Position numbers and translations under genes: made by a program. DNA of 64,000 nucleotides from Vulcanimicrobiota bacterium (GTDB lineage Bacteria; Vulcanimicrobiota; Vulcanimicrobiia; Vulcanimicrobiales; Vulcanimicrobiaceae): NCBI GenBank assembly GCA_963820825.1, contig CAWGBN010000008.1, positions 96,001 through 160,000 of the forward strand. The letters run 5' to 3'. Numbering within the stretch: position 1 is the stretch's first letter; each line of letters starts with the position of its first letter. A model generated the notes under the pieces. The model did no database searches, had not been told where the DNA came from, and saw only the letters and a list, made by a program, of their open reading frames with translations. Shown here in pieces: positions 6,770 through 42,767 of the stretch.

Positions 6770-6771
6770 CG

Positions 6772-26906: not shown

Positions 26907-27078
26907 TTACTGACCTGCTTGCTTTGCCCAACGGTAAAGCACCCGGCCAGCCTCGGCCACCGCCGGGCGGCGGCTCTTTCGCCGCCGACGGCGGGGAGCC
27001 GCCCGCGCCGCATCCGGAGGCATCGACAACGGCAATCATTGACGCGAAGAGCACGATAAAGAGCAAACGGTTACGCAC
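26907..27078 (-). CDS. Putative small lipoprotein (about 56 aa; needs removal of one base to reach TAA 26907)
   Basis: MRNRLLFIVLFASMIAVVDASG-C signal/lipobox-like start; GTG overlaps the probable true stop of the upstream gene. Confidence 0.45.
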
Positions 27079-28415
27079 CCAGCAACGCGGCTTCTCGATG
27101 AAGCCGCTGGAGAATTTCCACGTGCGGCGAGGTCGGCCATGACGCGCAGTTCGGGAACGGCCGTCGCTTCGAACCGAGAGCCGCGCACCGGCGGCCCAAC
27201 GATCCATAAGCCCGCGACACGGTTTCCGTCTTGATCGATCGCGCGCAAATCCGAATCCCCGCGTAAACCACGACCGCCCTCGTCGCGCGAAACGAGTCCA
27301 TCGGCGAGCATCGAGCCGAGCAGCGGATCTCGCGTCATGCGCGCCGCTTGACGGAAACCCGAGCAGTTCACGATCCAATCGGGCCGCACGGTGATGCTTC
27401 CGCCATACCCGCGCAACGTAATCTTCGCGTCACCATCCTGCATCTGCGTCAGCCTGCCGGCATAGTGGCGAAGACGGCCGGCTCGCACGTACTCCTCGCG
27501 CACCGCGTCGACCTGTTGCGGTGCACGGTGCCGATGCCGTTCCCAGTAAGCGCGCAGGTGGCGCTCGAAGCGGCGTTGCTCGGCCGCCGGCAGGCGGCGC
27601 CAAATCGCATCGGCCTCGGGGCGTAATGCGTCGAGCACGGCGCGCCAGTCGAATCCTCGCTCCGCGGCTTCGTCGATATGCCGGCGCAGGCTACGGAGCA
27701 GCGCCCTTGCGCCGCGCGTATCGAGCGCCGGAATCACGTCGTACGGTGCGACCGCAGCGTGGGCGTTTGGAAAACGGCCATTGCGGGATAGAACGTGCAC
27801 CATCCCGCGATGTCCGCTCGCCTTCAACGCTACGAGCACGTCCAGCGCGGTGAGGCCCGCACCGATCACCAGCACCTCGCCGTCGACCTCACGGTAATCG
27901 AAACGCCACGGATCGGCGACGTACCCACGATGGAGAAGCACTTCAAGCGGGAGGAAGTCGTCGCTCGGCGCGAGGTGTCCGGTCGCTAAGACCACGTTGC
28001 GCGCGCCGAAGCACGCTCCCGACGTGGATTCGACGATGAAGCCGCCGCTGCCCCAACGGCGCACGCTCGAAACTCGCGCGCGAAAATAGCCGAACCGCGG
28101 ACGCTCAAAGACTTGCCGGGCAATTTCGCCGACGTACTCGCCGTAGAGTTGCCGTGAGACGAAGTCGTCGGCGCCCCCGCTCGAGCCGAGCCAACGGACG
28201 AAATGCTCGGCATCGTCGGGATAGAGACTCATCTGAGAGGCGCGGGTATTGAGCAGATGCTCGCGGTGGCGCGTGCTGTACGCCGCACCCCGCCCGAGTT
28301 CGTCGGGCTCGAAGAGTGCGAGCGAAGAGATCTGCGAAGCGTTGCGAGCGAGATTGGCGGCAACCGCACATCCGCTGAAACCGCCGCCGATAACTACGAC
28401 ATCGATCTCGATCAT
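27036..28415 (-). CDS. FAD/NAD(P)-binding oxidoreductase (YdhS-like); true stop probably TAA 27071
   Basis: IGGGFSG, GRGAAY....HLLN, R..YGEY, IGAGLTALD, NCSG, EATAVPELR. Confidence 0.88.
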   Translation of the reverse strand: MIEIDVVVIGGGFSGCAVAANLARNASQISSLALFEPDELGRGAAYSTRHREHLLNTRASQMSLYPDDAEHFVRWLGSSGGADDFVSRQLYGEYVGEIARQVFERPRFGYFRARVSSVRRWGSGGFIVESTSGACFGARNVVLATGHLAPSDDFLPLEVLLHRGYVADPWRFDYREVDGEVLVIGAGLTALDVLVALKASGHRGMVHVLSRNGRFPNAHAAVAPYDVIPALDTRGARALLRSLRRHIDEAAERGFDWRAVLDALRPEADAIWRRLPAAEQRRFERHLRAYWERHRHRAPQQVDAVREEYVRAGRLRHYAGRLTQMQDGDAKITLRGYGGSITVRPDWIVNCSGFRQAARMTRDPLLGSMLADGLVSRDEGGRGLRGDSDLRAIDQDGNRVAGLWIVGPPVRGSRFEATAVPELRVMADLAARGNSPAASSRSRVAGCVTVCSLSCSSRQ

Positions 28416-28963
28416 CAGCCGGCCACCTTCAGATCGGCGCGAAGCGTAGCGTCGTAGCGCCCGAACGCCGCCTGGCGGCGGCGCGCGCCCTCGTCGTAGA
28501 CCAAGTATTGGCGCAGCGGACCGGCATAAACGTGAAGCGAGAGCGCCGGAGATTGGCCGGCGGCGCCCACGCGATGAAGATCGTAGCGCCCCGAACGAAG
28601 ATCGAGCTCGCCGACTTCGAGACGGCGGGAGCCGCTTGCTTCGACGTAGGCGTATCCCGGCACGTCGCCCGGGTCGAGGCGGACGTAGTCGTCGACGTCG
28701 AGGCCCCCCTCGAGGACGTACATCCAGCAGTGCTGACCGCCGTGGTCGTGGATCGGCGAGACCGCGCCCGCGGCCCAGTTCAAGAGAACGATCTCAAAAA
28801 GCGGATCCTGATACGCGCAAATGCGCGTGTACTCGCCCGGCCGCAACACGAGCTCCCGGCTGCTCGGCCAGCTACCCGAGCTTCCGACGAGCAGGGCCTC
28901 GACCTCTGAAGCGGCCCGATCCAGCGGCCCGCGCACGCGAAAATCGGAGATGAGTCGATACAC
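28415..28963 (-). CDS. Cysteine dioxygenase family cupin
   Basis: LLNW..G..SPIHDHGG..C, LHRV, SLHVY; SD AGGAGG; 1-nt overlap with the next gene. Confidence 0.85.
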   Translation of the reverse strand: MYRLISDFRVRGPLDRAASEVEALLVGSSGSWPSSRELVLRPGEYTRICAYQDPLFEIVLLNWAAGAVSPIHDHGGQHCWMYVLEGGLDVDDYVRLDPGDVPGYAYVEASGSRRLEVGELDLRSGRYDLHRVGAAGQSPALSLHVYAGPLRQYLVYDEGARRRQAAFGRYDATLRADLKVAG

Positions 28964-29103
28964 CCCGGCATCCTCCTAAGAAAAGATGACACTAGTTAAT
29001 GACTTCGGTCACCTTTGCGGGATGCGCGGAGATTCCTTCAGCCCGCTCCCAGGAGGTCGGGCGGGCGGGAATAGGGCTCGAGGTGGGGGTCGCTAGGTCG
29101 GGG

Positions 29104-30567
29104 TTAGGCCTTCCAGCGGAGGTCCGGCTGGCGCGCGGCGCGCGTCTCGTCGACGCGGCCGACCGGGGTGGTCGTCGGTGCGTCCAAGAGCGCTTGCGGA
29201 TCGGTCTTCGCCCGTTCCACGATCGCTCGTAATGCCTCAACGAAGGCGTCGAGCGTCTCTTTCGACTCCGTCTCGGTCGGTTCGATCATCAAACACTCCG
29301 GCACGATCAACGGAAAGTACATCGTGGGTGCCATGTAGCCGTAGTCGAGCAGCGCTTTAGCGAGATCGAGCGCGCGCACGCCGTGCTCTTTCTTTAGCTG
29401 CTGCGCCGATGCGACGAACTCGTGGCGGCAGTTCTCCGGATACGGCGTTTCGAGAAACTCCGCAACCTTCACGCGAAGATAGTTGGCATTGAGCACCGCG
29501 AGCTGAGAGACGCGCTTGAGGCCGTCGGCACCGTTGGCGTAGAGGTAGGCCAGTGCGCGCACCGCGTGCGCGAAATTCGACCAGAACGAACGCATCGGTC
29601 CGATCGACTTCGGCCGGTCGAAGTCGAGCCGCAGGCTGCCTTCGTCGCGAACGACGACGGGTGTCGGCAGATACTCGACGAGGTGCGCCGCGACGCCGAG
29701 CGGGCCGTGACCCGCACCGCCGCCGCCGTGCGGTATGGTAAACGTTTTGTGCGTGTTCAAATGCATCAGATCGAAGCCCATATCGCCGGGGCGAGTATAC
29801 CCCATAATCGCGTTGGCGTTAGCACCGTCGTAATACATAAGCCCGCCGGCCTCGTGCACGGCCGCGGCGATCTCCGCGATCTCCTCTTCGAAAAGCCCCA
29901 GCGTATTGGGATTCGTCATCATGCAGACTGCGGTATCGGTGCCGAGGACTCGGTGGATTTCGGAGACGCTGACGCGTCCGCGCTCGTTGCTCGGGAGCGA
30001 GACGACCTTGAAACCGCACATCGCCGCCGAAGCGGGATTCGTTCCGTGAGCGGTATCGGGCACGAGGACTCTGTCGCGATGCGTCTCGCCACGCTCTCTG
30101 AAGTATTTTTTGGCGATCAGCAGCGCGCCGAGCTCGGCATGCGCCCCCGCCGACGGATTGAGCGAGAAGGCGGCCATCCCAAAGAGCGAGCTCAGCGACC
30201 GCTCGAGTTCGTACATCACGGTGAGAGCGCCTTGAGCGAGCTCGTCGGGCGTAAAAGGATGGAGCTCGGCAAACGCCCGGCGCGCGACGATGGCGTCGTT
30301 GACGCGCGGGTTGTACTTCATCGTGCACGATCCCAACGGATAGAAGCCGAGATCGATACCAAACGTTCGCTGAGAGAGCCGGGTGAAGTGGCGCACCACG
30401 TCCAGCTCGCTGTTATCGGGTAGCGGAAGCTCGTCTCGCAGAACCGAGCGCGGCAGGAAGCTCTCGAGCGGCTTGCCCTCCTCGAGATACCGGTTCGCGC
30501 GTCCCTCCTGGCCCGACTCGAAGATCAGCGGGATCGCAGCCGTGTCGTTAGACCGCTGCGGGGACAT
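29104..30567 (-). CDS. gcvPB: Glycine dehydrogenase subunit 2
   Basis: YPLGSCTMKYNP, AHGTNPASA, YDGAN, HLNTHKTF, MIEPTETE. Confidence 0.96.
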   Translation of the reverse strand: MSPQRSNDTAAIPLIFESGQEGRANRYLEEGKPLESFLPRSVLRDELPLPDNSELDVVRHFTRLSQRTFGIDLGFYPLGSCTMKYNPRVNDAIVARRAFAELHPFTPDELAQGALTVMYELERSLSSLFGMAAFSLNPSAGAHAELGALLIAKKYFRERGETHRDRVLVPDTAHGTNPASAAMCGFKVVSLPSNERGRVSVSEIHRVLGTDTAVCMMTNPNTLGLFEEEIAEIAAAVHEAGGLMYYDGANANAIMGYTRPGDMGFDLMHLNTHKTFTIPHGGGGAGHGPLGVAAHLVEYLPTPVVVRDEGSLRLDFDRPKSIGPMRSFWSNFAHAVRALAYLYANGADGLKRVSQLAVLNANYLRVKVAEFLETPYPENCRHEFVASAQQLKKEHGVRALDLAKALLDYGYMAPTMYFPLIVPECLMIEPTETESKETLDAFVEALRAIVERAKTDPQALLDAPTTTPVGRVDETRAARQPDLRWKA

Positions 30568-31909
30568 GCAGCACCTCCTCGAGCGCGCTCGCGAGCGCCT
30601 TGACGTCGCCGGTCGTGGTGAGCTCGGTCGCGGTCATCAAGATGCACGCGTTCAACTCGGGATAGAAACGTCCAAGATCGAGACCGCCCAGAATCTTACG
30701 CTCGCGCAAGCCGGCGAGCACCTCCTGCGCCGGCCGTCCGACGTCGACCACGAGCTCGTTGAAGAACGGCGCCGCATGTCGGATCCGCACTCCCGATACG
30801 TTGGCGACCGCGCTGGCGAGCTCGCGCGAACGCGCCAAATTCAGCGCGGCGGCATCGCGCAAGCCGGTCTTCCCCATCAGCGCGAGATAGATCGTCGCGA
30901 TCAGGGCGCAGTGCGCTTGATTGGTGCAGATGTTCGAGGTGGCACGCTCGCGGCGAATGTGTTGCTCGCGCGCCTGCAGCGTGAGCACGTAGGCCGTTCG
31001 TCCGGCGTTGTCGAGGGTTCGGCCGACCAGCCGCCCCGGAATCCGACGCATGTGCTCCTGCGTCGATGCGATGAAGCCGGCGTAGGGACCGCCATAAGCG
31101 ATTGCGACGCCGAAACTCTGCGCCTCGCCCGCGACGATCTGCGCTCCCCACGCCGATGGCGGCGCGAGCGCGGCCAGCGAGAGGGCCTCGGCGACGACGC
31201 CGATCGGAATCGTCCCGCTCGCGCGCATCGCCTCTTGCGCGTTCGCCGCCGGCGTATCGACGTTGCCGAAGAAGTTCGGCGATTGCAGAGCGACCGCGGC
31301 ATACTCGCCGCCGGCGACGGCGCCGGCAAGCGCGTCGCTCTCCGTCGTGCCGTTCTCGGTAAATGGAGTCTCGTCGACGTCGACGTCGAGACCGTCGCAG
31401 TAGGTTCGCAGCACCCCGCGATAGTTCGGGTGGACCGCACGCGAAACGAGGATCTTCCGGCGCCCGGTCGCGCCGAGGGCCATGATTGCCGCCTCGGCGA
31501 GCGCCGTCGCGCCATCGTAGACCGAAGCGTTGGCAATATCCATTCCGGTCAGCAATGCGACGTAGGTCTGCCACTCGTAGATCGCTTGCAGATAACCTTG
31601 CGAGACTTCGGCTTGATACGGCGTATACGCGGTGAGAAACTCGCCGCGCATAGCGAGTGCGGCGATCGCCGGGGGCACGTAGTGCCGGTAGGCTCCGCCC
31701 CCAAGGAACGAACGGTAATCGACGCCGCTATTACCTTGGGCAAGCTGCTCGAAGCGGCGTTGGATCAAATATTCCGGCAGCGCCGGCACGACGTCGAGCT
31801 CGGCCTTGAGCGCGATTGCGTCGGGAACGCGCAGAAGCTCGTCGAGCGATTCGGCGCCGATCGTCTCGAGCATCGCCTCGACGTCGTGGCGGGTATGCGG
31901 AGCGTACAT
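30548..31909 (-). CDS. gcvPA: Glycine dehydrogenase subunit 1
   Basis: EFLTAYTPYQAEVSQG, NASVYDG, REQHIRRERATSNICTNQ. Confidence 0.96.
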   Translation of the reverse strand: MYAPHTRHDVEAMLETIGAESLDELLRVPDAIALKAELDVVPALPEYLIQRRFEQLAQGNSGVDYRSFLGGGAYRHYVPPAIAALAMRGEFLTAYTPYQAEVSQGYLQAIYEWQTYVALLTGMDIANASVYDGATALAEAAIMALGATGRRKILVSRAVHPNYRGVLRTYCDGLDVDVDETPFTENGTTESDALAGAVAGGEYAAVALQSPNFFGNVDTPAANAQEAMRASGTIPIGVVAEALSLAALAPPSAWGAQIVAGEAQSFGVAIAYGGPYAGFIASTQEHMRRIPGRLVGRTLDNAGRTAYVLTLQAREQHIRRERATSNICTNQAHCALIATIYLALMGKTGLRDAAALNLARSRELASAVANVSGVRIRHAAPFFNELVVDVGRPAQEVLAGLRERKILGGLDLGRFYPELNACILMTATELTTTGDVKALASALEEVLHVPAAV

Positions 31910-31931
31910 GGATTCCTTGGCGGATGTGGTC

Positions 31932-32405
31932 TTATTGGTTCTGCGATTTGAGCGCCGGGTCCGGAATTCCGTCCGGACAGATGGTCGCCTGCACGGCCGG
32001 GGAGACGTAATACGCATGCAGGTCGTAATGCGGAACCGGAAGGCCGGGGTGTCCGTGCGGCTCGTACTTGAAATCCACGTGATCGATGGTGTAGCCGGGC
32101 AGCGCGCGGACGTTCGCGTAGCTGAATCCCTTTTCGAGCTGCGCGACCGTCACCATGATCTCGGTGAATACCGGCTTCCCCTTCCAAACCCCATAGATCG
32201 GACCGATGGGCAGCTTCTTCGGATTGGCCCAATGCTCGCCCATCGTTGCGATGCACGGTGAGACCAGTATCGCGTCCGCGGGAATTCCGGCAGGATGAAC
32301 CTTGGGCTGCGGCGGCAGCATCGGCTCGCCGGCATCCGCACCGGTACACGAGCTCTTCACTACAAACGATATCACAAGCGCAAAAAGCGCGACGAAGCGC
32401 ATCAT
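31932..32405 (-). CDS. Secreted His-rich protein, DUF5602/TTHB210-like
   Basis: Signal peptide; MGEHW, PHGHPG..VPHYDLH.Y; ATGA overlap with the upstream regulator. Confidence 0.65.
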   Translation of the reverse strand: MMRFVALFALVISFVVKSSCTGADAGEPMLPPQPKVHPAGIPADAILVSPCIATMGEHWANPKKLPIGPIYGVWKGKPVFTEIMVTVAQLEKGFSYANVRALPGYTIDHVDFKYEPHGHPGLPVPHYDLHAYYVSPAVQATICPDGIPDPALKSQNQ

Positions 32406-34978
32406 CGATCTTCCTCCTCCGATCTCACGGTTTCAGCGACGCTTCTCGGAGCGCCTGTTGCTTGCGCGACCGCCTCCTTTTCGCTCATAGCCGCGCCCTC
32501 TGCCAAACGGGCCGTAACTGCCTCCGCTCCGAGGGCAGTTCGCAGCGCGGTTAATGCGCGGTCGTACTCTCGCTGCTCTTGATTGTTCAGCCGGGCGGCT
32601 CCCATCGCCGCAAGACGAGCGTCGACGAATCCCAAGATTCGCACGGCGCGCACGCTCTGGGAAACGCTGCTGCCGGAAGAGCCGGCGCGCAACGCCGCGA
32701 TGGCGGCGAGATGCTGCAGTGCCTGTGCCGCCAGAACGCCTAGGTGCCCGCTCCCATGACGGTATTCGAGCGCGAGCGCGAGCGCCTCACGAGCGCGCCG
32801 TTCGGCTTCTTCGAACCGGTCCAACAAAATGAGATAGAGCGCGATGTTGTCCAACGCCTGTGCGACGAGCGGGGTCTCGTCGAAGGTCTGTAAGGACGAT
32901 ACGGCTCTGCTCGCGTACTCCAGCGCCAGCTCGACGTTGCCGGCGATGGCTTCGCATTCGCTCAGATCGTTGAACGTGAAGGCCGCATTGAGATCTGCCC
33001 CGAGCGACTGGTAAATCTGAATTGCTTCCGAGTAATACGCTCGCGCGGCGACGATATCTCCGCTGTTGACGCAGCTGTTCCAACCCAACCCTCGGACGAT
33101 ATAGGCGATTAACCGGCGGTTTCCAATCGCGCGCGCTGCGGCGAGCGCCTCGTGCAAGAGCGGTACGGCTTCCGCCGGGCGTCCGAGCGCGGTGAGCGCG
33201 TGCGCCACCAGGCTTTGCGACCGGGCGGCGCCGAGTTCGTCACCGACCGCTCGATATTGCGCTGCGGCGCGCTCGCTGCACGACAAGTGCGCGTTATGGT
33301 CGCGGACCGACCAGGCCGTAATTGCTTCGGCATAACTGATCGCGGCTCGTACGCCAAGCGGAGTTCCATCGTCTAGCAATTGGCGAGCGGATGCAAGCCA
33401 TCGCGACCCTTCGAGCGGAGCAAAATACTGCCAGACCACGCGCAGCTCTCCGACGAGTCGCTCTCCCAACAAAACGTCGCCCCGGTCGTTGAGCGTCCAC
33501 TGCAGCGCCGTGCGCCAGTTATCGAGTTCCTCCGGAACGAGGCCGCGCCAGACGTCGTCGGGTTCGGACTCGTAAACGAGCTCGAGTCGCTCGGCGAGCT
33601 CGAGGGCGAGGCACGCCTGCCGGCGCGCGACGGCCTGCGTCTCGCCGCGATCGTCGAGCTTCTCGCGGGCGTATTCGCGAAATGATTCGCAGAGCTCATA
33701 ACGCGGCGCGTCTCCCTCTAACTCGGCTGCCACCAGCGATTTGTCGACCAAGGATGAGAGCGCCGCGAAGACGTCCGCTGCAGAGGCGCCTTCGTCGGCA
33801 CAGACCGCGCTCGCACCGGCGAGCGTGCAGCCGCCGACGAAGACCGAGAGCCGTTCGAAGAGCCGCTGCTCCGGCTTTGAGAGCAGATTGTAGCTCCAAT
33901 CGATCGTCGCGCGCATCGTCTGCTGGCGCGGCAACGCCATGCGCTCACCCACGGTCAGCAGCCTGAAGCGATCGTCGAGTCTACGAGCCAGCGCGGCGAG
34001 CGAAAGCAGATTAACGCGCGCCGCCGTCAACTCGATCGCGAGGGGTATTCCATCGAGCCGCCGGCAGACTTCGGCGACGATCGGTGCGTTTTCGTCGCTC
34101 AGCTCAAACCGATGATCGACGGCACGCGCACGATCGACGAAGAGTGCGATAGCGCCGTACGATCCGGCGTCGGCGGCCCGCATCGTACCGGCGCTTTCCG
34201 CTTCGGGCACCACGAGCGGCGGTAGACGATAGGCGTGCTCTCCCGCGGCTCTGAGCGGTTCGCGGCTGGTCGCAATGACGCGCAGCGCCGGACAACGGCT
34301 TAACAGACGCTCGGCGACCACGGCCGCTTCGTCGACGACGTGCTCGCAGTTGTCGAGAATCAAGAGCAGCGGTTTTTCATGCACGTATGCAACGAGCGCG
34401 TCGAGCAGCGAACGTTCGGGGCTCTCCTTGACCCCAAGTGCTGCCGCGATGGTGCCGGTCACGAGCGACGAATCGCCGATCGGCGCCAATCCGGCAAAGC
34501 AGAGCGCGCGGTCGTCGTGCTCGAGCGACGTCGCGACCTGCAGCGCGGTCTGCGTCTTACCGATACCGCCGGTACCGGTCAGCGTGACGAGCCGATGCTT
34601 GCGCACGAGCGCCGCGATCTCGCTAAGCTCGCGTTCGCGGCCGACGAACGTTGCGAGCGATAACGGAAGGCTGAAGGCTGCGGGCGGAGCCGAAGCGCCG
34701 GTCCTTAATGCGGGACCGTAGCGCGGACGCGTCGGCCGCGTCGCGGCTGCCTCGAGATGCCGGCGTTCGTCGGGCGCCAGGGCCAACGCACGCGCCAACA
34801 GCGCGACCGTCTCCCGATGGGGCGTCCGCCGATACCCGCGTTCGAGCGCGCTGATACCATTCGCGCTCATGCCCGCGCGCTCGGCCAAGGCCTCCTGCGA
34901 GAGTCCGGCGGCAAGCCGATAGCTTCGCAATACCGTCCCGAAGTCCGACGAGCCGGTGATCTGCTCCCCGTCCTCCAT
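32402..34978 (-). CDS. XRE-HTH + STAND/NB-ARC ATPase + TPR-like regulator (paralog 2)
   Basis: LSQEALAERAGMS, GTGGIGKT, LLILDNCEH, GIPLAIEL, RQQTMRATIDWS; clearly homologous to 6772-9195. Confidence 0.88.
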   Translation of the reverse strand: MEDGEQITGSSDFGTVLRSYRLAAGLSQEALAERAGMSANGISALERGYRRTPHRETVALLARALALAPDERRHLEAAATRPTRPRYGPALRTGASAPPAAFSLPLSLATFVGRERELSEIAALVRKHRLVTLTGTGGIGKTQTALQVATSLEHDDRALCFAGLAPIGDSSLVTGTIAAALGVKESPERSLLDALVAYVHEKPLLLILDNCEHVVDEAAVVAERLLSRCPALRVIATSREPLRAAGEHAYRLPPLVVPEAESAGTMRAADAGSYGAIALFVDRARAVDHRFELSDENAPIVAEVCRRLDGIPLAIELTAARVNLLSLAALARRLDDRFRLLTVGERMALPRQQTMRATIDWSYNLLSKPEQRLFERLSVFVGGCTLAGASAVCADEGASAADVFAALSSLVDKSLVAAELEGDAPRYELCESFREYAREKLDDRGETQAVARRQACLALELAERLELVYESEPDDVWRGLVPEELDNWRTALQWTLNDRGDVLLGERLVGELRVVWQYFAPLEGSRWLASARQLLDDGTPLGVRAAISYAEAITAWSVRDHNAHLSCSERAAAQYRAVGDELGAARSQSLVAHALTALGRPAEAVPLLHEALAAARAIGNRRLIAYIVRGLGWNSCVNSGDIVAARAYYSEAIQIYQSLGADLNAAFTFNDLSECEAIAGNVELALEYASRAVSSLQTFDETPLVAQALDNIALYLILLDRFEEAERRAREALALALEYRHGSGHLGVLAAQALQHLAAIAALRAGSSGSSVSQSVRAVRILGFVDARLAAMGAARLNNQEQREYDRALTALRTALGAEAVTARLAEGAAMSEKEAVAQATGAPRSVAETVRSEEEDR

Positions 34979-35054
34979 GTGCGGTGGGGGTTCGAGCCTC
35001 GGCGGAAGGCCACCCTCGCTCTCCCAGCGGCCGAGTCCGATATCGCACGCTACT

Positions 35055-35076
35055 CACACAAGCGATAGGGTGTGCG
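35055..35076. promoter_or_regulatory. Palindromic operator candidate, copy 1
   Basis: CACACA-N10-TGTGCG; the same arrangement occurs at 36345-36366. Confidence 0.5.
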
Positions 35077-35176
35077 ACCCGGTTGTTCGGTTGTGCGTTA
35101 CGGCAGACTAGGCCCGCGCGGCATGATGCATAGCGGAACAGGCGCCCTGCCTGGCCTCCTCTTCAAGGAGCAGAAC

Positions 35177-36268
35177 ATGACCTCGATCCATCGCATCAGC
35201 GCCGGCGCCGCCGGCCTTTGCATTGCAGCCGTAGCGCTCGCCGCTTGCGGCGGCGCTCACTCGTCACTCGCCGGGCCCTCCGTCCTTCCGGATCAGACCT
35301 CCGGCATTCCGGATCGGAGCTCCGCCGCGGCTAACTCGGCTGCGGCTGACGTCCAACCCGAAAAGTCGTGGATGGTTCCGACCGCCGCGACCGTCAAGAA
35401 GCTGATCTATCTCTCCGACGCAGGCCGCAACGCCGTGGTCGTCTACGATTACGCGACCGGAAAGCAGTTGGGACTGCTGACCGGCTTTCACAATCCGGCC
35501 GGCCAGTGCGTCGACCGCAGAGGCGACGTCTGGATCGCCGACTCCGACGCGCATGCGCTCGTCGAATACCGGCGCGGCGCACTCGCGCCGGCCCAGCGGC
35601 TCTCGACCTCTGGTCGTCCGGTTGGATGTTCGATCGCACCGAACGGCAACCTCGCCGCGGCCGAGGATCCCGCCCTCGAAGACGCGGGCAGCGCGGTCGC
35701 CGTCTGGAGCGCCGCCGCGCGCGCCGCCGCCTACTCGCCACACGCGGCCTCGTTCGCGGTTCCCAACTGCGACCTGCTCTCGCCACCCGGATACGACAAC
35801 CACAATAACCTCTATCTCGAGTGCACGATCGCCGACCTATCCAGCATCCGCGAACTTCCCGCCGGCGCTCGCACGTTACGGAAAGTCTCGTTCAACCGGT
35901 CGATCGTCGCCCCCGGCGGCGTTATGTGGGATGGCAAGTACATCACGCTGGCCGATCGGAACTTCCACTTCCGCCGTAGCACGGCAATCTATCGTGCAGT
36001 CGCGTCTGCCTCGGGAGCGCTTGCGGTCGCCGGCACCACGCTGCTGAGCGACGGGTGCGGCGGCGGCTTCACAAACGTCTTCTCACCCTTCATCGTCGGC
36101 GACAAGAACACGCCGGCGAACGATCGTCAGGGCACCACGGTAATCGGTGACGACCAGTCCTGCACCGGCGCCTTCGATTACTGGGCCTATCCGAACGAGA
36201 GCAATCAAGTCAAGACGCTGCCTTCGGCACCATCCTACGCAACGGGAGCCTCGGTCAGCATCTTATAG
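35177..36268 (+). CDS. Secreted lipoprotein, beta-propeller-like
   Basis: SD AAGGAG; lipobox LAAC; SWM.P, YLSD, CVD..GDVW, WDGKY; same family as 21339-22289 and 49162-50211. Confidence 0.8.
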   Translation: MTSIHRISAGAAGLCIAAVALAACGGAHSSLAGPSVLPDQTSGIPDRSSAAANSAAADVQPEKSWMVPTAATVKKLIYLSDAGRNAVVVYDYATGKQLGLLTGFHNPAGQCVDRRGDVWIADSDAHALVEYRRGALAPAQRLSTSGRPVGCSIAPNGNLAAAEDPALEDAGSAVAVWSAAARAAAYSPHAASFAVPNCDLLSPPGYDNHNNLYLECTIADLSSIRELPAGARTLRKVSFNRSIVAPGGVMWDGKYITLADRNFHFRRSTAIYRAVASASGALAVAGTTLLSDGCGGGFTNVFSPFIVGDKNTPANDRQGTTVIGDDQSCTGAFDYWAYPNESNQVKTLPSAPSYATGASVSIL

Positions 36269-36296
36269 TCGAACCTATCACGAGGAAGCGGGGAAC

Positions 36297-36329
36297 GCGG
36301 CCCGGTCGTACGACCGGGCCGCACTTTTT
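36297..36329 (+). terminator. Intrinsic terminator
   Basis: GCGGCCCGGTC-GTAC-GACCGGGCCGC followed by ACTTTTT. Confidence 0.85.
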
Positions 36330-36344
36330 GACCGTTTGTGAACC

Positions 36345-36366
36345 CACACAGCTGCCCCGATGTGCG
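36345..36366. promoter_or_regulatory. Palindromic operator candidate, copy 2
   Basis: CACACA-N10-TGTGCG upstream of ORF 36489. Confidence 0.5.
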
Positions 36367-36488
36367 GGTCGCTTGTGCGAGCGTCCGTTATCGCGACCGA
36401 GCGCTTACGAGATGATTGAAGTGTAAGGACGACCGTCGCTATTCCGCACGTTCGTCGATCTGAAATCAACGCAAAAGGAGAACCCAAA

Positions 36489-36809
36489 ATGACTCATCTC
36501 GTTCTCGCTGCCGCGATGCACTTCGATCGTAGCATACGCTGCAGCACGCTCGCGGCCAACGTCCCCAAAGCGGCCGCTTGCGAACGCGCCGATGGAACTC
36601 TGCGCACCTTCAAGAGCCGCGCAATCGCCTGGCGCGTTCGTTACTTCGTCCGCTACTGGCAGATGCCGTGCGGCGAGTTTCCGACCGAGGAAGAGGCCTA
36701 CGTCTTCCACATGGTCACGAACGACCTCTATAACGATCCCGACCTGAGCGATGCCGATCGCATCGACATTCGCAATATCATGTTCGTGGGGCCGGTCCGA
36801 TGCCCGTAG
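36489..36809 (+). CDS. Small Cys-containing hypothetical protein, copy A
   Basis: SD AAGGAG; paralog of 37883-38221. Confidence 0.8.
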   Translation: MTHLVLAAAMHFDRSIRCSTLAANVPKAAACERADGTLRTFKSRAIAWRVRYFVRYWQMPCGEFPTEEEAYVFHMVTNDLYNDPDLSDADRIDIRNIMFVGPVRCP

Positions 36810-37840
36810 CCTCTTTGAACTCAAAAAGCTGCGCGGCACTTGCGGCGCTGACGATCCTCGCGGGTTGCAGCGGCGCGCGGGCCGGCATGTCCATCGTGCC
36901 TACCGCGCCGGCGCCGCCGTCGCAGAAGGCACAGACCAGCCACTCGCAGCGCGGCATCGGCGAATCGACGCCTCTTTACGTCTACGTTTCGAACCGAACC
37001 GATCGGGGAGCCTCGGAGCTGCTCGTCTATAACGAAGGTTCGCAGAATCCGGCTCCCATTCGCACCGTCACGAAGAACCTCGTCAACGCCGGCGGCATCG
37101 CCGTCGACTCGTCGGGAGATCTCTTCGTCGCCAATGGCACGGGCGGAAACGTCCTGGAGTACGCTCCGGGGGCGGTTTCGATCGTTCAGACCTACTCGAA
37201 AGGACTCGCCGATCCCAGCGACGTCGCCGTTGCAAACGGGACCCTCTACGTGACGGACCGAGGAGACGCCGCAAACGGATACGTTCAGCAAATCATCGAG
37301 TACCCGATCGGCGACTCCAAGCCCTCATTAGGCATCGCGGGAATCGGTTCGTCGCCCGATCTCAACGAAGGCATCGCCGTCAATCCGATCGCGACGAAAG
37401 GAACCTTCTTCGCCTCGGCGAGCACGATGACGATGGTTCCGTTTAGCGGAGAGTGCAGCGGCAGCACCGAGACCGTCGGCGAGGATATCTTTCCGACCCT
37501 CTGGATGATCGTGCCCCTTTCGGAAAACGTCCAGGCCCCGGGTCTGGCCTTCGATGCGAGCGGGAGACTCTACGCCGCGGATCCGTGCAGCAACGACGTC
37601 GCCATCTACTCCGATTCGAACAACACCTGGACCTACGGCGGCAGAGTGCCCGGAACGTTCAAGACGCCGCTCTTCCTAACGATCGACGGCCAATACTTAG
37701 CCGTTCCCAGCTCGGGAAGCCCGCAGACGCTCGAGCCCGGCTACGTAACCGTGATCGATCTGAGCGGAAACTCCTCGACCCTTACCGTCACCAACGGTCT
37801 CCAACATCCCATCGGCGCCGCGGTTGGACCGCAACCGTAA
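36800..37840 (+). CDS. Secreted lipoprotein with NHL-like beta-propeller repeats
   Basis: Lipobox LAGC; GIAVDSSGDLFVAN, GLAFDASGRLY. Confidence 0.8.
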   Translation: MPVASLNSKSCAALAALTILAGCSGARAGMSIVPTAPAPPSQKAQTSHSQRGIGESTPLYVYVSNRTDRGASELLVYNEGSQNPAPIRTVTKNLVNAGGIAVDSSGDLFVANGTGGNVLEYAPGAVSIVQTYSKGLADPSDVAVANGTLYVTDRGDAANGYVQQIIEYPIGDSKPSLGIAGIGSSPDLNEGIAVNPIATKGTFFASASTMTMVPFSGECSGSTETVGEDIFPTLWMIVPLSENVQAPGLAFDASGRLYAADPCSNDVAIYSDSNNTWTYGGRVPGTFKTPLFLTIDGQYLAVPSSGSPQTLEPGYVTVIDLSGNSSTLTVTNGLQHPIGAAVGPQP

Positions 37841-37882
37841 CCGCTCTTTGCCGAACCTTGCCGAAGCGCCGATTCGGCGTGA

Positions 37883-38221
37883 ATGACGGCAACGATGATC
37901 GCGGGTCTCGTTGCCGTCCTCCTAACCGCGCACGATACGTCGCGCTGCAAGCCGTTCGCACCGCGCTTTGCGCAGTTCGTCGCCTGCGAGCGTGCCGATG
38001 GAACGCTGCAGGCATTCTCCGATCGGCAGATTACCTGGCGCGTACGCTTCTACGTCCGCTACTGGGAGATGCCGTGCGGCGAGTTCCCGACCGAAGAGGA
38101 AGCGTACGTCTTCCATCTCGTTACCAACGATCTCTACGGCGATCCCGACTTGAACGACCGGCAGCGGACCGCAATCCGCAACGCGATGTACCGGGGCAGC
38201 CCGCACTGTCTGCGCTCTTAG
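37883..38221 (+). CDS. Small Cys-containing hypothetical protein, copy B
   Basis: Hydrophobic N-terminus; shares ACERADGTL and MPCGEFPTEEEAYVFH with copy A. Confidence 0.8.
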   Translation: MTATMIAGLVAVLLTAHDTSRCKPFAPRFAQFVACERADGTLQAFSDRQITWRVRFYVRYWEMPCGEFPTEEEAYVFHLVTNDLYGDPDLNDRQRTAIRNAMYRGSPHCLRS

Positions 38222-38598
38222 TCGGTTGCGATCTTCTCGTACTCGGCAAGCGATAGGAGGCTCTTCGTTTCGTCCGGCTTCGTGGGGCGCACTTTGATCA
38301 GCCACCCCGAGCCGTACGGTTCGCGGTTTACGGCCGCCGGATCCCCATCGAGCGCGGCATTGACCTCGACGACCTCGCCCGAAATCGGCGTAAAGAGATC
38401 CGAGACGGCTTTGACCGATTCGATGACGCCGACGTTGGCGAACTGCGCGATCGTCGACCCAACCTTGGGCAACTCGACGTAGACGATATCGCCGAGCGCG
38501 TTCTGGGCGTAGTCGGTAATGCCGACCGTCGCCGAGCCGCCCTCGAGCCTCACCCATTCGTGCTCTTTGCTAAAGAGCAGATCCTCATCTGGCGCCAC
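38218..38598 (-). CDS. gcvH: Glycine cleavage H protein
   Basis: HEW, GITDYAQ..LGD, IESVKAVSD (lipoyl Lys), PYG.GW. Confidence 0.96.
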   Translation of the reverse strand: MAPDEDLLFSKEHEWVRLEGGSATVGITDYAQNALGDIVYVELPKVGSTIAQFANVGVIESVKAVSDLFTPISGEVVEVNAALDGDPAAVNREPYGSGWLIKVRPTKPDETKSLLSLAEYEKIATD

Positions 38599-38614
38599 TT
38601 CTTCTCTCCTTCCG

Positions 38615-39706
38615 TTACGATTTCGCGCGCTTGTAAAAGGGGAGCGCAACGACGGTCGCAGCGTGATTCTTGCCGCGAATCTCGACGTCCAGCCGTGTGT
38701 CGTCCGCCGCCGCCTCGGGAGCGACGAGTGCCGTCGCTATGCTCCGGTTGCCATATGACGGAGCGATCGATCCGCTTCGGATCGATCCCACCAGGCGTCC
38801 GTCGAACCAAACCTGATACCCCTCGCGCGCCGGGGCCCGTCCCTCCATTACGAGACCGACGATGCGCGAGTACCGGTCGACCTCGAGTTGTTCCTTGAGA
38901 GCCGCTCTTCCGACGAACTCCGGTTTATCGAGTTTGAGCGCCCACTTCAATCCGGCTTGAACCGGAGTGATCGCCTCGGTCAACTCGTGGCCGTAGAGCG
39001 GCATCCCGGCCTCGAGCCGCAGTACGTCGCGCGCACCGAGCCCGCACGGCTCGAGTCCTTCGGCGCGATGCTCCTGCAGAAGGTTTCGCCAAATCTCCGG
39101 AGCGTCCAGCGCGTCGACGAAGAGCTCGAATCCGTCTTCACCCGTATATCCGGTCCGTGCGATAACCGCAGGAATCCCGTTTACGCGCCCTTCGGCGCAG
39201 AAGTAGTATCGCAGTGCGCCGAGATCGACCTCGACGTGGGGCTGCAGGACTTCCACCGAGCGCGGTCCTTGAATCGCAACCAACGCGCTGCGGCCATGGT
39301 GGTTCTCCAGCGTGACGCCGGACTCCGGAAGCCGCTCGTTGAGCAGCCTCCACATCTTGTCGGCGTTTGCGGCATTGACGACCAGCAGCCAGCCTTTTTC
39401 GAGGCGATAGAAGATCGTGTCGTCGTGCGCGCCGCCGCCTTCGTTGCAGAAGATGTTGTACCGAGCCTGCATCGGCTTCATCGTCCCTACGGCGTTAATC
39501 GTCAGCGTATCGGCCCAGCGCGCAACCGCCTCCCCGGTGAGCCAAAACTGAGCCATGTGCGATAGGTCGAAGAGCCCGGCACGGTGCCGCACCGCATCGT
39601 GCTCTTTGAGAATGCCCGCGTACTGCACCGGCATCTCAAACTCCGCAAACGGCACCATGCGCGCACCGGCGCGAACGTGATCCTCGTGGAGCGCGGTCCG
39701 CTTCAT
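38615..39706 (-). CDS. gcvT: Aminomethyltransferase
   Basis: [35 protein letters not shown]. Confidence 0.96.
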
Positions 39707-40137
39707 TATTTCTTCGGCTTCTCTTGGGGATAGGTGTTGAGGAAATCGAGGGTCGCGTGAGCGACGATCTTCTCCCCGCTGCGAACGTAGACTTCGCCGT
39801 AGACGATGCGCCGGCCGCCGCGAAGCACCCGCGCCTCGGCGACGAGATCGTGCGGTGGACCCGCGGGCGCGAGGAAGTTGCACTGAAGCGCCACGGTCGT
39901 GGTCTCTTGCTCGCGGCCGTAGATCGAGGCGAGCGCAACGTAGAAGACGGTATCGCAGAGACTAACGATCGCGCCGCCGTGTACGGCACCGGTGCCGTTG
40001 GTGATCTCGGGACGATACGGCATGCGCATCACCGCGCGGCCGCGCTCGACGCTCTCAAGCTTCAAGTCCAGCAACGCGACGAAGTTGCTCTTCTCTTTCT
40101 CCCAGGCGTGCGGTGCTTGCGAATAATCGGTCGCCAT
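39706..40137 (-). CDS. PaaI family thioesterase
   Basis: N..GAVHGGAI.SL.D hotdog motif. Confidence 0.88.
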   Translation of the reverse strand: MATDYSQAPHAWEKEKSNFVALLDLKLESVERGRAVMRMPYRPEITNGTGAVHGGAIVSLCDTVFYVALASIYGREQETTTVALQCNFLAPAGPPHDLVAEARVLRGGRRIVYGEVYVRSGEKIVAHATLDFLNTYPQEKPKK

Positions 40138-40163
40138 GCTTTTCTCCTATCGGCCCTTCCGCT

Positions 40164-41051
40164 TTAAAAGGTATCGCCGCCGGCCGCCAGCATTCGCCGC
40201 AGGTAGAGCGGGAGCGCGAAGAGCCGGCGGTGGGTGAGCGAGTCGTAAAAGAAACTCTCCCCGCGAAGCCGCGCGCAATACGCGTCGATGCGCTCCGGGT
40301 CGAGGCCGGCCAGGTCGACGCGGTCGCTGCACGCGAGAAAGGCCCATTCCGTATCGAAGGCCGGGACGTGCGTCGAAGACGAGACGACGTGCGCGTAGTG
40401 GCGGCGCAGCGTGCGCGCCATCTTGCAATGGAGAGCCGCGTTGTGGACCGCGGCGGTGCTGGCCTGGAGCACGTAGATGCCGCCGTCGGCCAGGCGCGAC
40501 TTGATCAGCCGAAAGACCTCGTCGTTGAAGAGCGGGTTGCTCGGCGAATCCGCCAGCGGTTCGGTCAGATCCGAAAGGATCACGCCGTAACGCTCGTCGT
40601 TGGCACGCATGAACGCAAGCGCATCACCGACGACGACGCGGGCGCGTGGATCCTCAAATGCGCCTGCGGACCACTCGGGCAGATACTTCTTTGCCAGGTC
40701 GACGACGAGTGCGTCGATGTCCACCATCGTGCATCGGGTGACCTCGGGAGAGCGCAGCACCTCGCGCAGCGTCGCGCCCTCGCCGCCGCCCAGGACGAGC
40801 ACCTCGCGGCGGTCGGCGGCGCCCGCCAGCGCCGGATGCACGAGCGCCTCATGGTAGATGCGCTCGTCGGCTTGAGCGCTTTGCGTGTCGCCGTCGAGAA
40901 CGAGGATCTTGCCGAAGACGGGCGAGCGCAGTACCGCGACCTGTTGGAACTCCGAGCGGCCGGAGTAATAGAGCTCGTCGACGGCGTGATGGTGCCGCTC
41001 CGCCGGCTCGAACTCTTCGACGTACCAGTGCCACTCTTTCGTCTTCGGCAT
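40164..41051 (-). CDS. speE: Polyamine aminopropyltransferase
   Basis: LVLDG..QS...DE.IYHEALVHP, LGGGEG, VDID. Confidence 0.93.
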   Translation of the reverse strand: MPKTKEWHWYVEEFEPAERHHHAVDELYYSGRSEFQQVAVLRSPVFGKILVLDGDTQSAQADERIYHEALVHPALAGAADRREVLVLGGGEGATLREVLRSPEVTRCTMVDIDALVVDLAKKYLPEWSAGAFEDPRARVVVGDALAFMRANDERYGVILSDLTEPLADSPSNPLFNDEVFRLIKSRLADGGIYVLQASTAAVHNAALHCKMARTLRRHYAHVVSSSTHVPAFDTEWAFLACSDRVDLAGLDPERIDAYCARLRGESFFYDSLTHRRLFALPLYLRRMLAAGGDTF

Positions 41052-41131
41052 GCGAGCCTAGTGATTGGCGGCGGAAAAGAAGAACCCCGCCGTGCCGGCG
41101 AGGCCCTTCACCGAATCGCGACTCGTACGAA

Positions 41132-41842
41132 CTAGAAGCAGTTGATCGCGAAGTAGAGCCCGGTGCCTTTCGGCGGCAGCTCGAGGCCCTGTGGAACGGT
41201 GTACTGAGTGATCGTCACGGTCTTCCCCTTGATCGGGAACTGCGAGGGAAGCGCCGACCACGCGAGACCCTTCTTTCCCGATGCGAGGATCGCGGCACCG
41301 CAGTTCTTTCCGGGCAATCCCTTCGCATCGGTGATCACGTACTTGAGGATCGGTACGTTCTTGTGCGAGAGGGGCTTGATGACTTGCGTGGTCTGGTTGT
41401 CGGCGACGGCGTAGACGATGGTCGTTCCCTTACCCTTATACACCGGGAAGCTCTTGCCCTTATACTTTACGATGTCGCCGTTCTTGTCGATCGCGTCGAC
41501 CAGATAGATCGACACGGAGCCTTTGGCGGTGTTGTATCCGATCGAACCGGTAACGCTGATGTTCTGGTATTCGCCGAGGGTAAATTTTCCGCCCGTGTTT
41601 TTGAGCGTCCACTTATCGCACGCGCCCTTGAAGATCCACATCCATTGCGGCGGGTTCTTTGCACAGGTGGTCAGAGCGAGCGGCGACATATCGTCTTGGT
41701 TCGCAGTCATCGGCGAAAACGGTGAAGACGCTTGCGGCGCGAACGACGCGGATCCCGGAACGACGCCGTGACCGCCGCACGCGGCCAGTGCGATCGCCGT
41801 AACCGCTGCGAGCGCGCTAGACCGAATCATTGATAAACGCAT
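41132..41842 (-). CDS. Secreted lipoprotein of unknown function (Lys-rich)
   Basis: Lipobox LAAC; SD GAGG; four further Cys in the mature part. Confidence 0.8.
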   Translation of the reverse strand: MRLSMIRSSALAAVTAIALAACGGHGVVPGSASFAPQASSPFSPMTANQDDMSPLALTTCAKNPPQWMWIFKGACDKWTLKNTGGKFTLGEYQNISVTGSIGYNTAKGSVSIYLVDAIDKNGDIVKYKGKSFPVYKGKGTTIVYAVADNQTTQVIKPLSHKNVPILKYVITDAKGLPGKNCGAAILASGKKGLAWSALPSQFPIKGKTVTITQYTVPQGLELPPKGTGLYFAINCF

Positions 41843-41973
41843 TTGAAATTTCTTCTCAACCTCATTCGAGAGAGCAGTGACCGTTGGAATAACGAAATTT
41901 GACGGCAGCCGCCGCAGGCCTGCCGAAAAGCGCGTTATGAAAGCTGATAATTGCTGATGATAACGGTTAAAAA

Positions 41974-42390
41974 CTATGCCGACGCGCTAAATTCGCGCGA
42001 ATCCTCGTTGCGGCTCAGCACGTGCGTGAATTCGCCGTCGCTCTTTTCGATGCCACGTTTGAGCTCCGTAGCAAGCACGCTCGTCGCTCGTAACGCGCGC
42101 GCCGCGTGCTCGCAAGCGAGCCAGGGGTCGGTGTGGTCGCCGCACGTGTAAAAGTCCATCGCCGCGTAGCCCTTCTCGGGCCACGTGTGGATCGAAATAT
42201 GGGACTCTGCCAGGATGACCGTTCCGGAGACGCCTTGCGGCTCGAAACGGTGAAATGCGCTCTCCATAATGGTAGCGCGAGCGGCTTTCGCGGCGGCGAT
42301 CATCATGGCCGCGATGCCGTTGATATCCGAAAGCAAGGAGGGGCGACAGCCCGATAGCTCGCACACGATGTGCCTGCCGAGTGCCTTCAA
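41974..42390 (-). CDS. speD: S-adenosylmethionine decarboxylase proenzyme
   Basis: TTG start after SD AAGGAG; LGRH, F.PQGVS, LAESHISIHTWPE, DFYTCG. Confidence 0.93.
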   Translation of the reverse strand: MKALGRHIVCELSGCRPSLLSDINGIAAMMIAAAKAARATIMESAFHRFEPQGVSGTVILAESHISIHTWPEKGYAAMDFYTCGDHTDPWLACEHAARALRATSVLATELKRGIEKSDGEFTHVLSRNEDSREFSASA

Positions 42391-42634
42391 TTGTTCAGGT
42401 CTCCTTGACCCTTGAGGAATCCCACCTCCGGACTTCGTCGGCTGGCGGCTGCGGTGCAGACACGTCCCCGACCTATCGGCGAGCTCTTGCCGGCGCTTTT
42501 GACGGTGCACGGGCGACTTGCCGCGATGGCGCGAAAGGGCGCGCCCTCCCCAAAACCGTGCCCTCGGCTGCGCCCTTCCCGGGCCTCGCTGAGGACGTCG
42601 CGCCTGCGGCCCTCGGACCACAAACGCAGAGGGA

Positions 42635-42663
42635 ATCATACCCCCTCACCCCCCCGCTGTAAA
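42635..42663 (-). promoter_or_regulatory. sigma70-type promoter of speD
   Basis: TTTACA, 17 bp spacer, TATGAT on the minus strand. Confidence 0.7.
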
Positions 42664-42767
42664 GCCCTTCCCCACAGCTTGCCCACAGGCGGCACCTCCG
42701 TGAAAGTGAAGCTCTTACTTTACTATCTTGACTATATCCCGTTGCGGGGCGTACGCTGAGTCTTGCC

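Follow-up and report, generated by a model that had tools for sequence, protein, structure and literature searches.

Why do genes for a regulator and several exported proteins stand inside the glycine cleavage operon of an uncultured soil bacterium of the Vulcanimicrobiota, and do these genes form a functional unit? We addressed this question in a 64,000-nucleotide stretch of DNA (the window; G+C content, 64%) from contig 8 of GenBank assembly GCA_963820825.1. The assembly measures 2.98 Mb, is 85% complete, and is called G000 here, while the other G codes and the L codes stand for genomes and loci of its relatives. All four gcv genes are present, and 6308 nt with genes on the opposite strand lie between gcvH and gcvPA, so that the operon is not contiguous. 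A preliminary description of the window had rightly reported this split and the genes found in the 6.3-kb gap. On the minus strand these are REG (32402-34978), encoding an 858-amino-acid (aa) regulator with an XRE-type helix-turn-helix (HTH), a STAND NTPase with a nucleotide-binding oligomerization domain (NOD), and tetratricopeptide repeats (TPR), and HisR (31932-32405), encoding a secreted TTHB210-like protein with a histidine cluster. On the plus strand they are NHL1 (35177-36268) and NHL2 (36800-37840), both encoding NHL-repeat beta-propeller lipoproteins, and the paralogues smallA (36489-36809) and smallB (37883-38221), encoding orphan four-cysteine helical small proteins.

We found that the insert holds a real, coherent, and lineage-restricted regulatory cassette in a hotspot that splits the operon. 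Judging by analogy with MalT and AfsR, we consider it fairly probable that the 6.3 kb are accessory DNA whose core is a self-contained cassette, with REG acting as a MalT/AfsR-style activator of a private envelope regulon.

REG and NHL2 recur together away from the gcv locus

The whole module was found at the gcv locus of G245, G214, and G005, in the last of these over two contigs. Partial modules occupy the same place in G204, which lacks smallB, in G111, which has one small gene, and in G220, where only a small gene and HisR are present. When the small protein was taken as the starting point, REG lay within 3 kb in six of the seven gcv-locus genomes, and a REG-family gene lay within 3 kb at 7 of the 19 loci away from gcv (G006, G003, G218, G210, G225, where it is fragmented, L054, which is Candidatus Tumulicola by title, and L066).

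NHL2 orthologues (47 to 74% identity) were found in 22 of the 91 genomes of the genus. A REG-family gene lay within 2.5 kb at 20 of 28 NHL2 loci, and 22 of the 28 lie away from gcv; by our own arithmetic, based on 17 REG loci per 3 Mb, about 5% would be expected by chance. The 28 loci consist of 10 that had been seen earlier, all of them with REG, and 18 new ones, 10 of them with REG; three partial or degraded matches (G217 C117, G111 C30, and G002) were left out. At the new loci REG was usually divergent from NHL2, a conserved cis element described below lay just 5' of NHL2 at 10 of the 18, and the small gene was present at none. The stable core is therefore REG, an NHL2-type lipoprotein, and the element, to which the gcv-locus lineage has added the small protein, NHL1, and the duplication.

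The preliminary description had proposed a self-contained regulator and export module, and had named components that never co-occur elsewhere as the outcome that would speak against it. The unit of REG and an exported protein is in fact found at non-gcv loci, and this part of the proposal holds. The module is not one indivisible 6.3-kb insertion, since the small protein is optional and HisR, as detailed below, belongs to the gcvP side.

The same counts bear on the view that there is no functional unit at all and that independent accessory genes gathered in a recombination hotspot. Unrelated cargo does occupy the site in other species, the window contains no mobility gene or flanking direct repeat, and the REG and NHL-like families are large (17 and 35 loci), so that some adjacency would arise by chance. 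The same combination nevertheless occurs in members of two genera and at various genomic positions, both output units follow an element found nowhere else in the genome, and smallA and NHL2 are translationally coupled. We regard this view as hardly credible, and the co-occurrence counts largely refute it.

A 57-bp element precedes both output units

Alignment of the divergent intergenic regions between REG and its partner from nine genomes revealed a conserved block of about 57 bp, and a second copy was found 5' of smallA. Copy 1 (35050-35108, plus strand; nhmmer E value, 1e-6) lies in the divergent REG/NHL1 intergenic region, with one end 69 nt from the NHL1 start, and combines an inverted repeat (CTCACACA ... 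TGTGCGAC) with direct repeats of the TGTGCG type. Copy 2 (36340-36398, plus strand; E value, 2.4e-9) reads ACCCACACA-N10-TGTGCGGGT .... The consensus of the gcv lineage is ACCCACACA, a spacer of 9 to 10 nt, TGTGCGGGT, three bases, and TTGTTCGAGTGTGCGTTACGG, again an inverted repeat with TGTGCG-like direct repeats.

An nhmmer profile built without the G000 sequences found exactly two sites in the 2.98-Mb genome, the next best match having an E value of 0.38, and these two sites precede NHL1 and smallA-NHL2-smallB. Because an element unique in the genome precedes both output units, common control of the two is suggested, and to that extent the earlier claim that the exported proteins are under the control of the module is supported. 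Furthermore, since at its other end copy 1 is 72 nt away from the start codon of REG, this gene is probably autoregulated. Sites outside the profile set, located 40 to 120 nt 5' of small or NHL2 starts, were found at L025, L027, L032, L017, L028, L040, and L041, and further such sites at L069, L071, and L073 and at the 10 new NHL2 loci mentioned above.

We also considered the element as an RNA hairpin or leader and rejected this candidate, the consensus of 15 sites having a folding energy of -1.67 kcal/mol and 0 compensatory pairs. The element is a DNA signal and not an RNA structure.

REG is an XRE-type STAND regulator from a distinct clade

REG, a cytoplasmic protein, carries an N-terminal HTH (Pfam HTH_31, 55.8 bits; HTH_3, 49.2 bits; residues 12-75), followed by an NTPase domain (AAA_22, 28.0 bits against a cut-off of 27; residues 127-217) for which the AAA_16, nSTAND, and NB-ARC matches are subthreshold. 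Its translation shows a Walker A motif (GTGGIGKT) and a Walker B motif (LLILD), and the C-terminal part consists of repeats (TPR_12, 63.4 bits over four stretches; TPR_10, 30.8 bits). REG thus has the domains expected of a STAND regulator, namely, a P-loop NOD with Walker motifs, a C-terminal repeat sensor, and a DNA-binding domain. Orthologues at the gcv locus of five relatives are 59 to 84% identical to it. In Pfam, REG had no match at an E value of ≤0.01 to Trans_reg_C or BTAD, by which a Streptomyces antibiotic regulatory protein (SARP) would be recognized, and no match to GerE, the mark of MalT and the large ATP-binding regulators of the LuxR family (LAL); it was assigned to neither group. 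REG was also considered as a TPR protein associated with ribosomally synthesized and posttranslationally modified peptides, and this candidate was discarded, the NCBIfam models HaaT (42 bits against a cut-off of 1125) and FxSxx_TPR (33 against 300) reflecting a shared NTPase/TPR architecture only.

A STAND NTPase with TPRs is also the architecture of several defence sensors, and a SLATT/DUF4231 gene occupies the same hotspot in G024 and G008. It is nonetheless very improbable that the locus is an Avs/STAND-type anti-phage or conflict system with REG as its sensor NTPase. Indeed, PADLOC matched REG with HTH and control-protein models only (residues 12-78; E values of 9e-7 or weaker) and with no Avs or other NTPase model, the N-terminal domain of REG is a DNA-binding HTH rather than an effector, and both the number of paralogues (17 per genome) and the divergent arrangement of the promoters are what one would expect of transcription factors.

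The 17 REG-paralogue loci in the 2.98 Mb of G000, several of which are fragmented or interrupted by in-frame stops, represent a large expansion for a small genome. Other members of the genus have 4 to 17 REG matches at an E value of ≤1e-100. A second paralogue lies within the window (6754-9195, minus strand) and contains one TAG. In the closest relative, G245, a second paralogue stands in tandem between REG and NHL1 (L027 5909-8370), and because it is split into two frames, with segments of 37% and 57% identity, it is probably decaying.

The position of REG among its relatives was assessed in a quick IQ-TREE phylogeny (LG+G4) with support from the Shimodaira-Hasegawa-like approximate likelihood ratio test (SH-aLRT) only. 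The tree had 32 rows, comprising the window REG, 11 of the 16 other G000 loci, and 20 REGs of relatives; four partial sequences, three fragmentary G000 loci, and the REGs of L077 to L092 were left out. The window REG falls in a clade of 19 rows (SH-aLRT, 90) together with every REG located beside a small gene, NHL2, or the element, except L073a. None of the 11 included G000 paralogues falls inside this clade, and 13 of its 19 members have such neighbours. A first tree (SH-aLRT, 99) had suggested a relocated trio of strict orthologues, a reading that was softened when wider sampling showed extra same-clade paralogues in other genomes.

A proposed mechanism and its alternatives

MalT of Escherichia coli activates envelope and periplasmic binding and uptake genes via several repeated sites. 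It shares with REG the architecture of a NOD switch and a repeat sensor, and it differs in having a C-terminal LuxR-type HTH and a SUPR sensor, whereas REG has an N-terminal XRE HTH and TPRs. The NOD switch of MalT depends on inducer and ATP and is combined with a repeat sensor (PMC4381067). The large SARPs AfsR and PolY of Streptomyces have the same domain order as REG, with an N-terminal DNA-binding domain, a central NB-ARC ATPase, and C-terminal TPRs, and are pathway-local activators that bind to direct repeats near the -35 region (PMC10972967). However, AfsR and PolY carry an OmpR-type winged HTH and BTAD where REG has an XRE (Cro/cI-type) HTH, they belong to a different phylum, and they are tied to biosynthetic clusters, whereas REG has envelope lipoprotein neighbours. 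The complete architecture of REG is found in proteins of Chloroflexota, Actinomycetota, and Bacillota that combine HTH_3/HTH_31, AAA_22/NB-ARC, HTH_77, and TPR_12 (score of the 10 nearest Atlas clusters, 0.99). These clusters have no functional names, and in the literature searched we found no paper tying the XRE-STAND-TPR architecture to a regulon.

On the model of these systems, a cytoplasmic ligand would be read by the TPR sensor of REG, and its binding would release the ADP-locked NOD. The ATP form of REG would then oligomerize, and its HTH domains would occupy the repeated half-sites of the element. The lipoprotein operons (NHL1 and smallA-NHL2-smallB) would be switched on, transcription of REG itself would probably be affected via copy 1, and the propeller lipoproteins would serve as receptors or binding proteins beyond the cytoplasmic membrane.

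Several observations speak against such a regulon. The element precedes small genes in G008 and G024, as well as NHL2 at L076, L079, L081, L083, and L091, without REG within 2.5 kb, and these sites are thus equally consistent with regulation in trans or by some other factor. At L082, REG stands beside NHL2 with no element at an E value of ≤0.05. No REG lies within 2.5 kb at 8 of the 28 NHL2 loci, and 6 of the 19 members of the REG clade have no small gene, NHL2, or element as a neighbour in the flanks examined. In G000, 3 of the 17 REG paralogues lie within 1 kb of an NHL-like gene (permutation mean, 0.96; P = 0.064), which does not amount to enrichment, and their neighbours are not enriched in lipobox genes (10 of 87 versus 224 of 2484 genome-wide). 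Finally, the gcv-locus small proteins have no lipobox and linker and keep just 8 to 12 hydrophobic residues, so that their export is uncertain.

The unenriched neighbourhoods rule out that all REG paralogues control neighbouring lipoproteins. The link between REG and lipoproteins is specific to the clade of the window REG.

The sites without REG and the arrangement at L082 would both be expected if the element were the promoter or operator of some other factor (for example, an unlinked regulator or an alternative sigma factor), with REG adjacent for historical reasons or regulating only itself and HisR-gcvPAB. We consider this rather unlikely, as REG lies within 2.5 kb at most NHL2 loci, mostly divergent and with the element in between, and as the element-associated REGs fall in one clade. 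Furthermore, inverted and direct repeats suit an oligomerizing HTH protein, and the genomes with REG-less loci carry REG-clade members elsewhere (56 to 59% identity), so that control in trans is possible.

Regulators of this type and the propeller fold are already known. The new observations, none of which was found in the literature searched, are the operator, the pairing of REG with NHL2, the orphan small protein, and the hotspot. If REG activates the lipoprotein operons, this would be the first defined regulon for XRE-HTH STAND regulators, a widespread and uncharacterized architecture. The locus is a compact and testable set of regulator (858 aa), operator (57 bp), and targets (two small operons). 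It could open the first functional access to XRE-type STAND transcription factors, a type common among Chloroflexota, Actinomycetota, and Bacillota. Soils and peat harbour abundant Eremiobacterota, the genus studied here is represented by metagenome-assembled genomes only, and to our knowledge almost nothing is known of sensing or regulation in this phylum. Only tentatively do we extend the proposal to a dedicated REG clade of Baltobacteraceae (Eremiobacterota) that would read a private 57-bp operator, activate diversifying propeller lipoproteins together with a new-fold four-cysteine partner, and, in one Candidatus Cybelea sublineage, have captured gcvP transcription.

HisR belongs to the gcvP side, and gcvP may be read from the REG promoter

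The preliminary description had called HisR a His-rich protein coupled to REG. The coupling is of the ATGA type, the ORF coordinates giving a 4-nt overlap between the REG stop and the HisR start. As for its composition, HisR has a cluster of five histidines within about 24 residues but only 7 in its 157 aa overall. It resembles TTHB210 of Thermus thermophilus (PDB 3vg8; E value, 4.4e-4) over residues 52-136, including the IDHV ... HPG ... PHY motif. It differs from TTHB210 in carrying a signal peptide and in its subthreshold Pfam score (PF18197, 21.4 bits against a curated cut-off of 26.6); in the nearest Atlas clusters, PF18197 is present in 14 to 25% of the members.

HisR stands directly 5' of gcvPA in all six module-bearing genomes, and likewise in five genomes (G016, G002, G019, G004, and G220) that have no REG there. 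HisR is therefore an older resident of the gcvP operon and belongs to gcvP and not to the regulator. In the window it is separated from gcvPA (30548-31912, minus strand; Pfam GDC-P; E value, 3e-118), which encodes glycine dehydrogenase subunit 1, by a gap of 19 nt. The start at 32017 previously given for gcvPA, which would have overlapped HisR, was wrong; the gene starts at 31912 with MYAPHT, as in all relatives. It is followed by gcvPB (29104-30567, minus strand; GcvP2_C; E value, 6e-26), which encodes glycine dehydrogenase subunit 2 and is 83 to 95% identical to its counterparts in relatives.

The split raises the question of how gcvPA and gcvPB are transcribed. The gcvT-gcvH pair ends head-on against smallB with a 4-nt overlap (38218-38221), which leaves no space for a terminator between them, and the gcvT promoter thus presumably cannot serve gcvPA and gcvPB. 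REG, HisR, gcvPA, and gcvPB are codirectional, and REG and HisR overlap or abut in four of six genomes (G000, G214, G005, and G111; the gap is 22 nt in G245 and 79 nt in G204). Because of this gene order and overlap, HisR and the gcvP genes are now probably cotranscribed with REG, and read-through from the REG promoter would probably be the simplest source of gcvP transcripts. A weak terminator-like hairpin at the REG/HisR junction (6 pairs, 3 of them G-C) argues against read-through; the scan returned 13 such sites, against 8.6 ± 3.2 expected. Rewired gcvP expression is a likely consequence of the insertion, and if read-through occurs, central C1 metabolism would be coupled to an envelope-sensing circuit.

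This arrangement could also mean that REG is a new glycine cleavage regulator that senses glycine or one-carbon status and drives HisR-gcvPA-gcvPB, with the lipoproteins as mere passengers. Besides the codirectional genes and the REG/HisR junction, this would fit with the lack of a glycine riboswitch, or of any other Rfam match at an E value of ≤1, in 27000-43000, and with the fact that read-through from gcvT-gcvH to gcvPA would have to cross 3 kb of opposite-strand genes. We nevertheless judge it improbable: REG-clade genes with NHL2 and the element recur away from gcv, gcvPA lies directly after gcvH or behind REG-less cargo in 14 of 20 genomes of the genus, and the element faces the lipoprotein genes. 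Activation of the lipoprotein operons by REG remains the reading that we prefer.

The NHL proteins are predicted six-bladed propeller lipoproteins

Both NHL proteins have signal peptides with a lipobox (...AVALAAC-GG in NHL1 and ...TILAGC-SG in NHL2) that conforms to the lipoprotein motif [LVI][ASTG][GA]C, and in NHL2, G22 and C23 are invariant in 10 orthologues. Their Pfam NHL scores, 23.2 bits for NHL1 and 35.3 bits for NHL2, both exceed the cut-off of 20. NHL1 probably starts at 35177, behind an AAGGAG, and shows just remote likeness to NHL2 (E value, 1e-4). An AlphaFold2 model of NHL2 (predicted local distance difference test [pLDDT] score, 75.8) is all-beta from residue 59 onward and shows a six-bladed propeller behind a disordered lipoprotein linker. 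Foldseek matched this model to PknD and Pizza propellers with E values of 1e-9 to 2e-11, the best natural match being the extracellular sensor of PknD (PDB 1rwl; E value, 1.2e-9; TM score, 0.51/0.67; 20% identity). The resemblance to ScyD/ScyE is weak (34.7 bits against an NCBIfam cut-off of 80). The extracellular NHL sensor of Mycobacterium tuberculosis PknD (PDB 1rwl and 1rwi) is a six-bladed NHL propeller, as predicted for NHL2; in PknD the propeller is fused to a membrane kinase, whereas NHL1 and NHL2 are free lipoproteins. The NHL lipoproteins most likely act as receptors or binding proteins outside the cytoplasm and not as enzymes.

G000 has about 35 loci for NHL1-like propeller lipoproteins, two of them elsewhere in the window (21573-22208 and 49408-50166, both on the minus strand). 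The 224 of 2484 G000 ORFs counted above were flagged by a crude lipobox heuristic, and the proteome appears lipoprotein-rich.

The small proteins form a lineage-restricted family

The small-protein family has 4 cysteines and 24 columns that are invariant in 24 sequences. smallA and smallB, which are 64% identical, are its sole two copies in the genome, and the copies away from gcv have a low-complexity linker as well as a lipobox. When 1.84 billion representatives were searched with a profile, 22 proteins were returned, the distant relatives having Sec signal peptides and keeping the core W-R-x-x-Y-F ... M-P-x-G-E-x-P-T. The protein was found in 21 of the 91 genomes of the genus, one of these being a weak match, in 3 of the 151 genomes of a family-wide sample, and at 23 loci in 185,579 species genomes; the titles of the public loci read Candidatus Cybelea, Ca. 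Tumulicola, Baltobacteraceae, and Eremiobacterota/Vulcanimicrobiota.

An AlphaFold2 model of smallB (pLDDT score, 79.5) shows a five-helix domain; the other four models were poor. Two disulfides are predicted for the small protein. A fold search with the small-protein model gave no match, the best Foldseek E value being 3.6 and the best VIA-align Z score being 5.8, below the noise level for helical models, and neither smallA nor smallB had a match in Pfam, NCBIfam, or PADLOC. The proteins thus define a lineage-restricted family without a recognizable fold. A complex prediction for NHL2 (residues 52-346) and the small protein (residues 17-112) scored 0.00, which is below the mark and carries no weight either way. 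The small protein may be an accessory partner of the propeller lipoproteins.

In G245 the smallB frame extends to 140 aa. A small gene lies beside a gene for an AAA_16 and GerE (LuxR-type STAND) protein in G250 (L031 8825-11611) and beside one for an AraC-type protein in G230 (L043 8633-9454). Exported enzymes also occur as neighbours, namely, an S8 peptidase lipoprotein in G001 and a PF04185 phosphoesterase in G244. A secreted protein of about 235 aa without a Pfam family, which has Y-x-F-G-Y-N-T near its N terminus, is encoded next to the small-protein gene in G006, G024, and G008 and within the gcv hotspot of G001 (L030 8767-9474, L040 7806-8519, L041 4507-5220, and L021 5158-5865).

The gcvH-gcvPA junction is an insertion hotspot

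We searched for gcvH and gcvPA in 40 relatives, and 20 genomes of the genus, G000 included, had both genes on one contig. The two genes were contiguous in 4 of the 20, with gaps of 2 to 23 nt, and separated by 0.5 to 12 kb in the other 16; the gaps measured 2, 5, 7, 23, 510, 536, 553, 752, 1377, 1413, 1432, 1561, 1562, 2003, 3109, 3171, 3429, 6308 (G000), 11711, and 12129 nt. In two other (sister) families, the gap was about 215 nt or less in 16 of 16 genomes; this result also holds without G036, a genome flagged as unpublished. The gcvH-gcvPA junction is a lineage-specific insertion hotspot in the genus, and accessory genes have repeatedly landed in the otherwise conserved gcvT-H-PA-PB operon.

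The cargo is diverse. HisR alone is present in G016 and G004, and a PF04185 phosphoesterase lipoprotein is encoded in G002 (with HisR), G013, G018, G010, G024, and G008. Other inserts consist of genes for penicillin amidase and SnoaL (G015), GNAT with a small ORF of no family and HisR (G019), DUF1648 (G017, G012, and G010), a ROK kinase and CMD (G012), and MFS and SLATT/DUF4231 proteins (G024 and G008). SLATT/DUF4231 are defence-associated effector domains with two transmembrane segments; their genes lie in the 12-kb inserts of G024 and G008 (L015 5086-6120 and L016 5479-7191). The insert of G023 contains a duplicated 5' fragment of gcvPA (L012 2834-2974; 70% identity over 47 aa), which may be a scar left as recombination filled the hotspot. 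Because this general hotspot takes up unrelated cargo in other species, the location of the module between gcvH and gcvPA says little about its function.

Further features of the locus

The insert genes have a G+C content of 0.74 to 0.80 at third codon positions versus 0.43 to 0.56 at second positions, and each has conserved homologues in relatives; they are therefore real genes and not chance ORFs. The intrinsic terminator reported earlier after NHL1 was recovered at 36297-36322 (plus strand), with an 11-bp stem including 10 G-C pairs and a T run. The smallA stop overlaps the NHL2 start by 10 nt. No promoter-like site was returned by a sigma-70 consensus scan of 29000-40500. The sole real repeat in the insert is smallA/smallB, and the window showed no att-like sites bounding the insert.

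Upstream of the insert lie gcvT (38615-39883, minus strand; Pfam GCV_T; E value, 5e-87) and gcvH (38218-38649, minus strand; GCV_H; E value, 5e-43). The annotated gcvH ORF is longer than the 126-aa proteins of relatives, and its true start is likely later than 38649, giving a product of about 126 aa. Directly downstream of gcvPB are genes (27036-28963, minus strand) for a cysteine-dioxygenase-type cupin (CDO_I; E value, 5.5e-12) and an FAD-NAD(P)-binding protein (NAD_binding_9; E value, 7.5e-33), a pair that also follows gcvPB in relatives (L028, L029, and L037).

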